Virus record (IMG/VR): IMGVR_UViG_3300023179_000041
Location: 1 to 64,000 of that record
DNA length: 64,000 nt
DNA from: a virus
Reading direction: 5' to 3' (one strand)
Notes under the pieces: generated by a model
What the model saw: the letters and a program-made list of their open reading frames with translations, nothing else
Databases searched by the model: none
Told to the model about the DNA's origin: nothing
Shown: in pieces, positions 3,360-32,750 of the stretch
Layout of the letters: each line of letters opens with the position of its first letter
Numbering within the stretch: position 1 is the stretch's first letter
Program-made: the position numbers and the translations under genes

Positions 3360-3580
3360 TGTCGTATCTGGCAACACGCTCGCGCCGTGTCTCTCACGCG
3401 CTCACGCTCGCGCCGTGACGCTCGCACACTCTCACGCGCCAGAATGGGCGAACCTTGCCACACGCGCTCAGACCCTCGCTAGCGCGTCAGAATGGCGCGC
3501 CCGCTATCTAAGTACCCTCGCGCCGTTATCGCGCGCCTATGAGCCTTAGAACGGCGCTCGCGAAAACGCGCACAAGCAGG

Positions 3581-3594
3581 CGAACAAGTGTTCG
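3581..3594. promoter_or_regulatory. LexA box
   Basis: CGAACAAGTGTTCG. Confidence 0.7.
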
Positions 3595-3607
3595 GTCGGC
3601 GGCAGTC

Positions 3608-3616
3608 TGTGGATAA
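3608..3616 (-). promoter_or_regulatory. DnaA box
   Basis: TGTGGATAA is the reverse complement of consensus TTATCCACA; lies between two LexA boxes. Confidence 0.55.
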
Positions 3617-3636
3617 CTTCGTCTATCCGACGAAAT

Positions 3637-3650
3637 CGAACAAGTGTTCG
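3637..3650. promoter_or_regulatory. LexA box
   Basis: CGAACAAGTGTTCG, identical to 3581-3594. Confidence 0.7.
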
Positions 3651-3784
3651 CAATACCCCCCCCACCTTGACCACGCTGAGTGGTCGAGTGGGGCGCGGAC
3701 TAAGCCCTCCTCAAGTTTGCAACCTAAATTGTGCTGTATAGGTGTCCTAATCTCGACCTGAATCCCGCTATCATGACATCAAAA

Positions 3785-3997
3785 CCAGCGGTGTGTGCGT
3801 GTGAATGATTGTCTCCACACAGCACACTTCCTCCTTACCACTGCTGGCAGACCAGTGGGCTCGGCCATATGTCTGCCATCACAAATCCACCGCGAACGTG
3901 CGTGACATCACTACACTGATTGATGGGCAGTGATGGCTTTATCATTTCAGCCACCTTTCTCACCGCTGGCATACCGGTGACACTGTCCTGTATGCCA
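3785..3997 (+). ncRNA. Candidate structured RNA with two pseudoknots
   Basis: Closing helix CCAGCGGTG/CACCGCTGG; H-type pseudoknot CCACTG/CAGTGG plus TGGCAGAC/GTCTGCCA; further hairpins; no convincing ORF. Confidence 0.55.
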
Positions 3998-4002
3998 CTC
4001 AT

Positions 4003-4075
4003 GCCCGTGAAGCATATTTGGCTATGCACCTCACTTGTAATGAGGAGACAGTGGGTTCGACTCCCACCATGGGCT
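4003..4075 (+). tRNA. tRNA-Thr(UGU)
   Basis: Acceptor GCCCGTG/CATGGGC; anticodon arm CCTCA-CTTGTAA-TGAGG; T arm GTGGG-TTCGACT-CCCAC. Confidence 0.9.
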
Positions 4076-4090
4076 CAATAGGATGAACGC

Positions 4091-32189: not shown

Positions 32190-32750
32190 ATGGCCATTCT
32201 CACTTATGACGACCTTGAGATTTACATGGGCAAAACCTTTACCGATGCCCAGCAGGACGCGGCTATGTCAATCATTGCCGCCCTTGAAGCAGAACTTGAG
32301 TACTACCTAAATAGGCCTCTTGGCGCGCGTTTATATTCAGAAGAAGAACACAAACTTGTTCCAGGACAGCGACAAATATTTTTGCGCCACGCACCGGTTC
32401 AAAGCGTAACGTCTTTTTATGTTGGAATGCCGGGCGAAGAGGTTGAGCAGAATATCGAAGACTTTGACATCTTTCCTTGGGGCATAGATAATATTCGAAT
32501 CGCTGGAACCGGCAACCAAGCACTTGTCACCTACACAGCAGGAATGACATCGAACGATACGATTGCGCTTGAGCGAGTTCTTTACACCGCATCAGCACGA
32601 GAGATGAGCAAGTTCCTTATTGATGCTCAGGGGCTATCCAGACTCAAGGTAGAGGGAAGCGACTACGTCTTTCCGGATGGCGGCGAAGGCGGATTCACAG
32701 AGCGCGAACTTAACTCAGTCAAGCGCTTTAAACGAAGAGTGATTGTGTGA
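32190..32750 (+). CDS. Head-to-tail adaptor
   Basis: DDLEIYM, LEYYLNR, APVQSV, VTYTAG; position. Confidence 0.8.
   Translation: MAILTYDDLEIYMGKTFTDAQQDAAMSIIAALEAELEYYLNRPLGARLYSEEEHKLVPGQRQIFLRHAPVQSVTSFYVGMPGEEVEQNIEDFDIFPWGIDNIRIAGTGNQALVTYTAGMTSNDTIALERVLYTASAREMSKFLIDAQGLSRLKVEGSDYVFPDGGEGGFTERELNSVKRFKRRVIV

Follow-up and report, generated by a model that had tools for sequence, protein, structure and literature searches.

Based on the combined evidence of this analysis, positions 3703-3997 of the window (the whole 64,000-nucleotide (nt) stretch analysed, which is the first 64 kb of the 106-kb linear IMG/VR virus record IMGVR_UViG_3300023179_000041) are understood as the non-coding structured leader of a transcription unit that starts with tRNA-Thr and the packaging-module genes. 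The core of the leader is formed by two copies of one compact H-type pseudoknot, a widespread phage RNA module. The feature in the window is real, and the RNA family to which it belongs is uncatalogued and of an already known general kind. We have little doubt about this identity of a conserved leader with two copies of a real and widespread pseudoknot family. The whole statement, which adds to the two module copies a role as boundary element and a mechanism for it, comes near to an even chance without reaching it; the suggested mechanism of a roadblock or cap, considered by itself and from sequence features, is a tentative proposal with the balance tilted against it.

The module is built from a variable stem 1, the string G-CU-GGCAKAC-C, the returning strand of stem 1, an A-rich loop 3 and the strand GUMUGCC. 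Stem 1 comprises 4-6 covarying pairs and loop 1 is CU; stem 2, the 7 base pairs (bp) of GGCAKAC/GUMUGCC, is stacked directly on stem 1, and the A-rich character of loop 3 lies towards its 3' end. In the window, a repeat finder recovered CACTGCTGGCAGACCAGTG (3839-3857) again as CACCGCTGGCATACCGGTG (3961-3979), and downstream of each repeat stands the sequence complementary to its loop (GTCTGCC from 3871, GTATGCC from 3990). Copy 1 (3839-3877, + strand) consists of stem 1 CACUG/CAGUG (3839-3843/3853-3857), loop 1 CU (3844-3845), stem 2 GGCAGAC/GUCUGCC (3846-3852/3871-3877) and loop 3 (3858-3870). It scores 41.8 bits (E 1e-9) against R1, the covariance model built on 86 distinct sequences of the family, here named the phage 'GCUGGCAKACC' leader pseudoknot. 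Copy 2 (3961-3996, + strand; 35.8 bits, E 5e-8) consists of stem 1 CACCG/CGGUG (3961-3965/3975-3979), loop 1 CU (3966-3967), stem 2 GGCAUAC/GUAUGCC (3968-3974/3990-3996) and loop 3 (3980-3989). Both copies exhibit the stem 1 of the family (4-6 pairs, closing G-C, 9-nt loop CUGGCAKAC) together with a stem 2 in which K and M are complementary, copy 1 being of the G..C type and copy 2 of the U..A type. Both stems change in a compensatory way from copy 1 to copy 2, stem 1 by U-A to C-G and stem 2 by G-C to U-A, and stem 2 alone contributes -9.2 kcal/mol in copy 1 and -7.3 kcal/mol in copy 2. No further copy was found by R1 in the 64-kb window, and a geometric pseudoknot scan of the whole 106-kb genome returned only these two along with three unrelated chance matches.

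A first-pass annotation of 3785-3997 had proposed a novel structured RNA with two tandem pseudoknots upstream of the tRNA. Its general claim of a structured RNA of no recognised family is borne out for a region that is conserved and non-coding: the Rfam check returned nothing in 3500-4000 even at E ≤ 10, and the + strand of 3785-3997 folds at -78.6 kcal/mol compared to -63.1 ± 4.1 kcal/mol for dinucleotide shuffles (z -3.74; 0 of 200 equal). The - strand likewise folds above chance (z -3.07), so that folding stability alone cannot assign the strand. All of the annotated helices are found in their places (3785-3793/3961-3969, 3842-3852/3871-3881, 3906-3912/3929-3935 and 3967-3977/3987-3997), the hairpin at 3793-3827 is part of the minimum-free-energy (MFE) fold, and the first H-type pseudoknot is real, corresponding to copy 1. 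The two-pseudoknot architecture as drawn is nonetheless wrong. The segment 3961-3979, being the direct repeat of 3839-3857, forms copy 2 with GTATGCC at 3990-3996. The complementarity of the 9-bp closing helix is present, but its 3' arm is stem 1a of copy 2 and the two are mutually exclusive; the final GGCATAC/GTATGCC hairpin does pair, but as stem 2 of copy 2. The second pseudoknot that had been suggested (CATCACT 3906-3912/AGTGATG 3929-3935, with its loop pairing to TTTATCATTTCAG) is not supported. Of the seven bases in its 5' arm, five (CATCA) are lost through a deletion in the relative L265, and the downstream sequence proposed to pair with its loop belongs to another hairpin (3935-3952), whose loop is invariant and whose stem covaries.

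The evidence that carries the module is drawn from a wider family. An exact-pattern scan of viral contigs with the 19-mer recovered the unit in contigs unrelated to one another, and in every case the complementary strand followed downstream, with a start codon shortly after. The looser pattern GCTGGCAKACC-N9-22-GTMTGCC was found on at least 120 IMG/VR viral contigs; among the matches listed, K and M are complementary in 123 of 125, compared to 50% by chance. After removal of the K/M exceptions and of two recurring matches that lay in frame within coding sequence, the set used for covariation and for R1 comprised 86 distinct sequences, all but four from unrelated phages. Five stem-1 pairs covary in this set. 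The pair adjoining the closing G-C is C-G in 60 sequences, U-A in 18, G-C in 3 and A-U in 1; the next pair is C-G in 46, G-C in 17, G-U in 11, U-A in 6, A-U in 3 and U-G in 3, and is unpaired in none. Overall, 90.6% of the cells are paired compared to 32-38% with slid partners, and none of 500 shuffles reached the observed covariation score. The presence of many G-U pairs in stem 1 together with the absence of A-C pairs identifies the sense strand and argues for RNA; the possibility of a DNA-level palindrome was rejected on the same observation. Application of R1 to the fetched loci revealed extra copies missed by the pattern, with a loop 3 of only 3-5 nt, and up to three copies per phage are placed at successive gene junctions.

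Stem 2 is conserved in a different fashion. Its K/M pair is GC in 70 and UA in 16 of the 86 sequences and broken in none, and the remainder of the stem is fixed in sequence. A scan in which the pair A19-U47 was replaced by other combinations gave at least 114 matches of chance-like character (31% Watson-Crick at the pair, 56% complementary at K/M), and the sole credible variant of this pair among the matches listed is GGCGUAC/GUACGCC in L316. One-sided wobble variants were seen as GUAUGCU in L021, L022 and L027 and as GGCAGGC in a gut phage. The canonical stem 2 is commoner than compensated variants by about two orders of magnitude, a ratio that is approximate and refers to the matches listed. 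Judged from these sequences, stem 2 is more than a mere helix, in that it is constrained in sequence. Stability alone would not call for a fixed sequence, which points to specific tertiary contacts or to a partner that is itself conserved.

Concerning distribution, BLAST with a 38-nt copy found only the cultured Xanthomonas phage XAJ2 (KU197014.1), in which the element (at about 32,487-32,511, minus strand) lies 11 nt 5' of a gene in the recombinase/SSB module, and gut-phage scaffolds. A scan of bacterial genomes gave mostly chance matches (K/M complementary in 81 of 122), with about ten that have a proper stem 1, in metagenome-assembled genomes and one isolate genome, from Lentisphaerota, Bacteroidota, Actinomycetota and a lineage of the candidate phyla radiation among others; the well-formed copies include Victivallis, Lentisphaerae, Bacteroidia, Microgenomates and Bifidobacteriaceae. 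The module is present in prophage-like DNA of several phyla, and no claim is made on host chromosomes. In other material, neither 16 member loci nor three compact copies were matched by Rfam 15; literature searches with conserved strings (CUGGCAGACC and related) gave unrelated matches only, and the module is not described in the phage RNA-discovery papers compared. Readings as HDV-like, pistol-like or preQ1-like RNA were rejected on strand order or for lack of an Rfam match. Related architectures were also encountered. L035 (- strand, oriented position 1562) and L042 (2597) carry a pseudoknot of like geometry with another stem 2 (CGGGG-UC-GCCGAUG-CCCCG-UUAUCC-CAUCGGC), about 66 nt 5' of the canonical module, which in terms of sequence suggests the existence of sister families differing in stem 2. 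Loop 3 can also hold a hairpin of its own in some members. Larger multi-helix RNAs arise in two ways: in L027, L039, L045, L065, L087 and L092, loop 3 pairs upstream of an extra hairpin (AACCCG..CGGGUU), and in L041, L047 and L102, it pairs with the loop of an upstream hairpin (GCCAUG..CAUGGC).

In the family, the start codon of an open reading frame (ORF) of at least 50 amino acids (aa) lies no more than 40 nt past stem 2 in 88 of 112 instances (81 of them at 11-40 nt), and the gap from the upstream stop codon to the module is far more variable, ranging from 7 to over 300 nt. A stimulator of frameshifting or of stop-codon read-through was rejected on account of this variable spacing to upstream stops. 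Directly 3' of stem 2, the sequence favours A (55%), C (57%) and C (44%), with G at only 3-4%, and the final three bases of loop 3 are A in 64, 49 and 60%. The downstream genes mostly belong to replication and recombination (ResIII/SNF2 helicase, Prim-Pol/D5 primase, UvsX/RecA, DUF2800 and YqaJ nucleases, exonuclease, PolA, ligase, UDG), with a minority of TerS/terminase and tail tubular proteins. A tRNA on the same strand within 150 nt was found in 5 of 97 instances compared to 0.6 expected, an enrichment of about 10-fold; tRNA-Trp is placed 7 nt 3' of the element in L033, and tRNAs are placed just 5' of it in L034, L066 and L085. The window deviates from the usual arrangement in that a start codon 10-40 nt past stem 2 is found behind neither copy, with 83 nt of RNA after copy 1 and tRNA-Thr 6 nt after copy 2. 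Six members ahead of tail tubular genes (L093, L094, L095, L097, L099, L106) have no purine-rich Shine-Dalgarno (SD) sequence between pseudoknot and ATG (ACCUUUUUCUAACUUUCAUG), which suggests, as a reading of sequence, that the hosts of this subgroup are not reliant on SD.

The deviation is clarified by the window's own clade. Seven relatives from four further lineages, found among viral and metagenome contigs, make five lineages with the window. Across the seven, the leader of about 300 nt is 79-86% identical, and a coding function is excluded by the many indels whose length is not divisible by three, one of them a deletion of 34 nt in L265. This deletion corresponds to window 3877-3910 and takes the last base of copy 1 stem 2, the next base restoring the stem. 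In most relatives the slot between pseudoknot 2 and tRNA-Thr is occupied: a 116-aa ORF is found in the L005 group (L005:1332-1710) and an unrelated 64-aa ORF in L266 (L266:372-594), neither with a PHROGs match. The ORFs of L005 and L266 sit behind the same 23-nt linker with an AAGGA SD, copy 2 being 23 nt before the ATG. With the same linker and SD standing before unrelated ORFs, pseudoknot 2 plus linker behaves as an expression leader for a variable slot that looks like a site of cargo insertion. Only in the window and L265 is the slot empty (3997-4003), with the tRNA directly after the pseudoknot. Copy 2 is the standard gene-proximal copy, abutting the tRNA here because its cargo slot is empty. 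Release together with the tRNA, as suggested earlier, is not conserved, given that a protein ORF separates the two in five of the seven relatives.

The remainder of the leader is conserved to different degrees. A block at 3703-3792 (+ strand), unique in the genome and near-invariant in all seven relatives, holds CCCUCCUC and an inverted repeat ACCUA..UAGGU. Candidate roles for this block are those of a promoter or an operator, or it may already belong to the RNA as its 5' portion. The subsequent hairpin P2 (3793-3827, + strand; pairs 3793-3803/3816-3827) shows compensatory changes in every lineage, with GUGUG/CACAC in the window compared to UGUAG/CUACA in L266/L267, UGUGC/GCACA compared to GGUGC/GCAUC, and one pair changed from G-C to A-U in two of seven relatives. 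Directly 5' of pseudoknot 1 follows the single-stranded UCCUCCUUAC (3829-3838, + strand), which is anti-SD-like and equals the 16S rRNA 3' tail; its CCUCCUU, already pointed out as unpaired in the first-pass annotation, is invariant in seven of seven relatives and unpaired in the MFE and consensus folds. Between the pseudoknots, a variable and partly dispensable middle segment (3878-3934, + strand; from the alignment), which includes the CATCACT arm, is followed by the hairpin at 3935-3952 (+ strand). Its 10-nt loop UUAUCAUUUC (3939-3948) is invariant, its stem covaries (GGCU/AGCC here, GUCGC/GCGAC in the L005 group), and no conserved pairing partner for the loop was found. Within the clade, the stems of P2 and of 3935-3952 covary and both pseudoknots show no variation. 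For the closing helix, A3787 to C breaks one pair in five of seven relatives and the other eight pairs, including the 6-bp core, never vary, hence do not allow a covariation test. In an alternative helix P0, 3788-3794 would pair with 3980-3986 in loop 3 of pseudoknot 2; it is paired at 98%, and its changes comprise one compensatory exchange and two of the G-U/G-C kind. Within-clade covariation is too thin to choose between the closing helix and P0, and the RNA might conceivably switch from one conformation to the other.

As to function, the module is proposed to act in cis within polycistronic phage RNA, to be folded constitutively and to mark the 5' boundary of the next functional unit, be it a ribosome-binding site or a tRNA. 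The tight pseudoknot probably serves as a roadblock or cap, stopping exonucleases as well as the unwinding by upstream ribosomes. The folded module would fix the RNA ends after processing and may keep the G-poor linker and the ribosome-binding site behind it unstructured, thus insulating the initiation region. Comparable to it are the coremin/xrRNA-C elements of plant and insect RNA viruses, small sequence-constrained pseudoknots at viral gene boundaries that are thought to be roadblocks and are strongly constrained in sequence through tertiary contacts (PMC6546385, PMC10321173). The folds and the conserved sequences are distinct: in coremin, a hairpin of 3 bp closed by a YGAD loop is joined to a second hairpin through a conserved spacer of 10 nt that ends in CUAC, and stem 2 has no more than 3 bp (PMC6546385, PMC10321173); the window copies have stems of 5 and 7 bp, a 9-nt loop and no such spacer.

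Several observations weigh against the boundary-element proposal. A pure roadblock leaves the fixed stem-2 sequence across phyla unexplained. Copy 1 adjoins neither a start codon nor a tRNA. The 9-bp closing helix, calculated as a duplex, is worth -17.4 kcal/mol and exceeds stem 1 of copy 2 in strength, so that an alternative conformation at copy 2, as modelled through this helix, is conceivable. The invariance of both pseudoknots inside the window's clade means that their support comes from the wider family and not from their own lineage. Finally, a U-rich tract past stem 2 in about 40% of the members could mean termination.

The most interesting rival to the boundary-element proposal is mimicry of a tRNA acceptor arm. 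By analogy, the stacking of stem 2 on stem 1 would imitate the helix of acceptor and T-stem and direct RNase P to a putative cut in loop 1, between CU and GGCAKAC (3845/3846 and 3967/3968 in the window), thereby punctuating the polycistronic RNA and leaving a 5'-terminal hairpin on the downstream product. We consider this unlikely on the whole, with several features pointing to it. Bacterial RNase P cuts H-type pseudoknots in loop 1 given a 3' RCCA, and it also cuts the tRNA-like structure of turnip yellow mosaic virus (TYMV) (PMC12710915). The module shares with the TYMV acceptor and with the biotin-aptamer pseudoknot plus RCCA (PMC12710915) the strand order S1a-L1-S2a-S1b-L3-S2b (S, stem; L, loop), followed by a purine and often CC. 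It has a 7-bp stem 2 with 0 nt between the stems, and the invariant CU before G occupies loop 1, where the published substrates are cleaved. Every member has U before the G-C/G-C that opens stem 2, these positions being partly fixed by the search pattern. The preference for A, C and C after stem 2 and the enrichment of tRNA genes beside the element fit the same scheme, and a universal enzyme would account for conservation across phyla. However, the module is internal to mRNA and not 3'-terminal, and RCC after stem 2 is present in only 27 of 99 members, the window copies reading GCC-AUC and GCC-ACU. In the consensus fold, moreover, the A past stem 2 finds its partner in the U of loop 1. Furthermore, RNase P needs no fixed acceptor sequence, which leaves the conservation of A19-U47 unexplained.

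A second rival is a sensor or operator, in which the fixed stem 2, loop 1 and the A-rich loop 3 would together create a binding site, either for a small molecule or for a conserved protein, and the bound partner would set the translation of the replication and recombination genes. The models are the preQ1-I-type riboswitch and the T4 gene 32 pseudoknot; we regard this explanation as improbable. The prevalence of helicase, Prim-Pol, UvsX/RecA, exonuclease, PolA and ligase downstream and the G-poor unstructured linker up to the start codon agree with it. The T2/T4 gene 32 leader is similar in having an H-type pseudoknot in a phage mRNA leader, followed by an unstructured region to the ribosome-binding site of a gene of DNA metabolism. 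The geometry of that pseudoknot (stem 1 of about 5-6 bp, loop 1 of 1-2 nt, stem 2 of 7 bp, loop 3 of about 7 nt) is near to that of the module, and in phage T4, protein binding spreads from the pseudoknot over the unstructured region to the ribosome-binding site. By contrast, the T4 element is confined to T-even phages and there to the ssb gene, and the module, unrelated to it in sequence, precedes many genes and tRNAs in several phyla. The downstream genes are diverse, being those for helicase, Prim-Pol, UvsX, PolA, tail proteins, TerS and tRNA. The T4 gene 32 operator is itself absent from Rfam (PMC10690425). The preQ1-I aptamer (RF00522) is likewise a compact H-type fold near the start codon; its stem 1 measures about 5 bp, its loop 1 is short and made of pyrimidines, and its loop 3 is rich in A, but its weak 3-4-bp stem 2 holds the SD and needs the ligand, whereas the module's stem 2 of 7 bp is stable and clear of the SD. 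The combination of a pseudoknot, at least 16 near-invariant nucleotides and several phyla corresponds to the criteria of Weinberg et al. for biochemically sophisticated RNAs (PMC5737381). Against all this, a G+C-rich stem 2 of 7 bp should fold without a ligand, and there is no evident expression platform, the SD being outside the pseudoknot and no conserved alternative pairing being present. An anti-SD, in the form of CCUCC within 60 nt upstream, occurs in only 9 of 97 members, compared to 2.5 expected. The downstream genes also include tail, terminase and tRNA genes, and no single phage protein can be common to such diverse phages.

In a third explanation, the RNA would be a free molecule of about 210-250 nt that RNase P severs from the tRNA and that acts in trans, either as a ribosome or mRNA decoy, for instance through its exposed CCUCCUUA on the AAGGAGG sites of the early genes, or as a ribozyme. 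A role in ribosome binding or as a decoy through this stretch, which the first-pass annotation had also considered, is possible from sequence; the free RNA as a whole strikes us as a poor candidate. The stretch UCCUCCUUAC is invariant and predicted to be unpaired, AAGGAGG is present at early genes (window 42, 1132 and 1771), and with the tRNA directly next in the window and in L265, RNase P would free an RNA ending 6 nt past pseudoknot 2. Yet in five of seven relatives the RNA leads an ORF and is not a tRNA precursor, and this arrangement weakens the trans-acting anti-SD reading and the ribozyme reading alike. Any anti-SD fits any SD, which makes the complementarity unspecific, and no bounding promoter or terminator was found. 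For the ribozyme, already mentioned as an option in the earlier annotation, no test is favourable: no Rfam ribozyme family was matched and the strand order is unlike that of HDV-like folds. An HDV-like or theta ribozyme (P1-P2-P3-P3'-P1'-P4-P2') was rejected because the strand between the stem-2 arms pairs upstream of stem 2, not downstream. Least probable of all is a pseudoknotted intrinsic terminator or attenuator between genes, with stem 2 as the terminator hairpin before a U tract. At least four U in a 6-nt window within 12 nt past stem 2 are found in 39 of 97 members compared to 9.9 expected (at least five U in 20 of 97, 1.7 expected), and a Victivallis copy is directly followed by UUUUU, but the tract mostly begins 3 nt past the stem and not at it, 60% of the members, including both window copies, lack it, and with the start codon within 10-40 nt, full termination would silence the gene; a terminator role fits the U-tract subset only.

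The leader is part of the genome of a freshwater tailed phage that encodes TerL, portal, protease, an HK97-type capsid and a gene of tape-measure size (1,981 aa). The only RNA gene called by ARAGORN and Rfam in the window is the neighbouring tRNA-Thr(UGU) (4003-4076, + strand; 59.4 bits), which starts 6 nt past pseudoknot 2 and lies outside the conserved RNA; no other tRNA or tmRNA cloverleaf or tRNA-like domain was found in the window by these tools. The tRNA is followed on its 3' side by genes for a 99-aa protein and a PAPS-reductase-like protein and then by the packaging genes. On its 5' side, the leader borders on a G+C-rich region with small early genes. A scan for sigma-70-type promoters at the leader gave no site, and TTGCAA-N14-TATAGG was rejected as a promoter for its wrong spacing and for position 6 not being T. 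Just 5' of the leader, a long G+C-rich hairpin without a U tract (3656-3698; CCCCACCUUGACCAC..GUGGUCGAGUGGGG) is kept in relatives; possibly the early region ends there in an I-shaped terminator. The LexA-box-like palindrome CGAACAAGTGTTCG occurs twice without mismatch shortly 5' of the leader (3581-3594 and 3637-3650). The early genes (255-285, 1085-1150, 1720-1790) show a repeated cassette in which an extended -10-like TGnTAYAMT promoter is followed by CACAAGGAGGGCUGAAAUG; the AAGGAGG of these cassettes is the exact complement of the CCUCCUU in the leader.

Lastly, the analysis has importance in shifting the reading of the window from an RNA attached to a tRNA to an operon leader composed of reusable pseudoknot modules. 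A more far-reaching interpretation, that of a new class of sequence-specific RNA device common to phages across bacterial phyla, with either a universal host machine or a small molecule as its reader, has a low probability in our assessment. Were it true in its most concrete version, with RNase P, the module would represent a phage counterpart of mitochondrial tRNA punctuation, placed at chosen gene starts; in the other version, it would be a sensor gating replication genes. The compact pseudoknot might also find use in synthetic biology as a portable part for insulation or stabilisation. Should the family hold up, few structured RNA modules of tailed phages that are still uncatalogued would be more widespread, and it would provide a handle on how phages shape their long polycistronic RNAs in processing, stability or translation.

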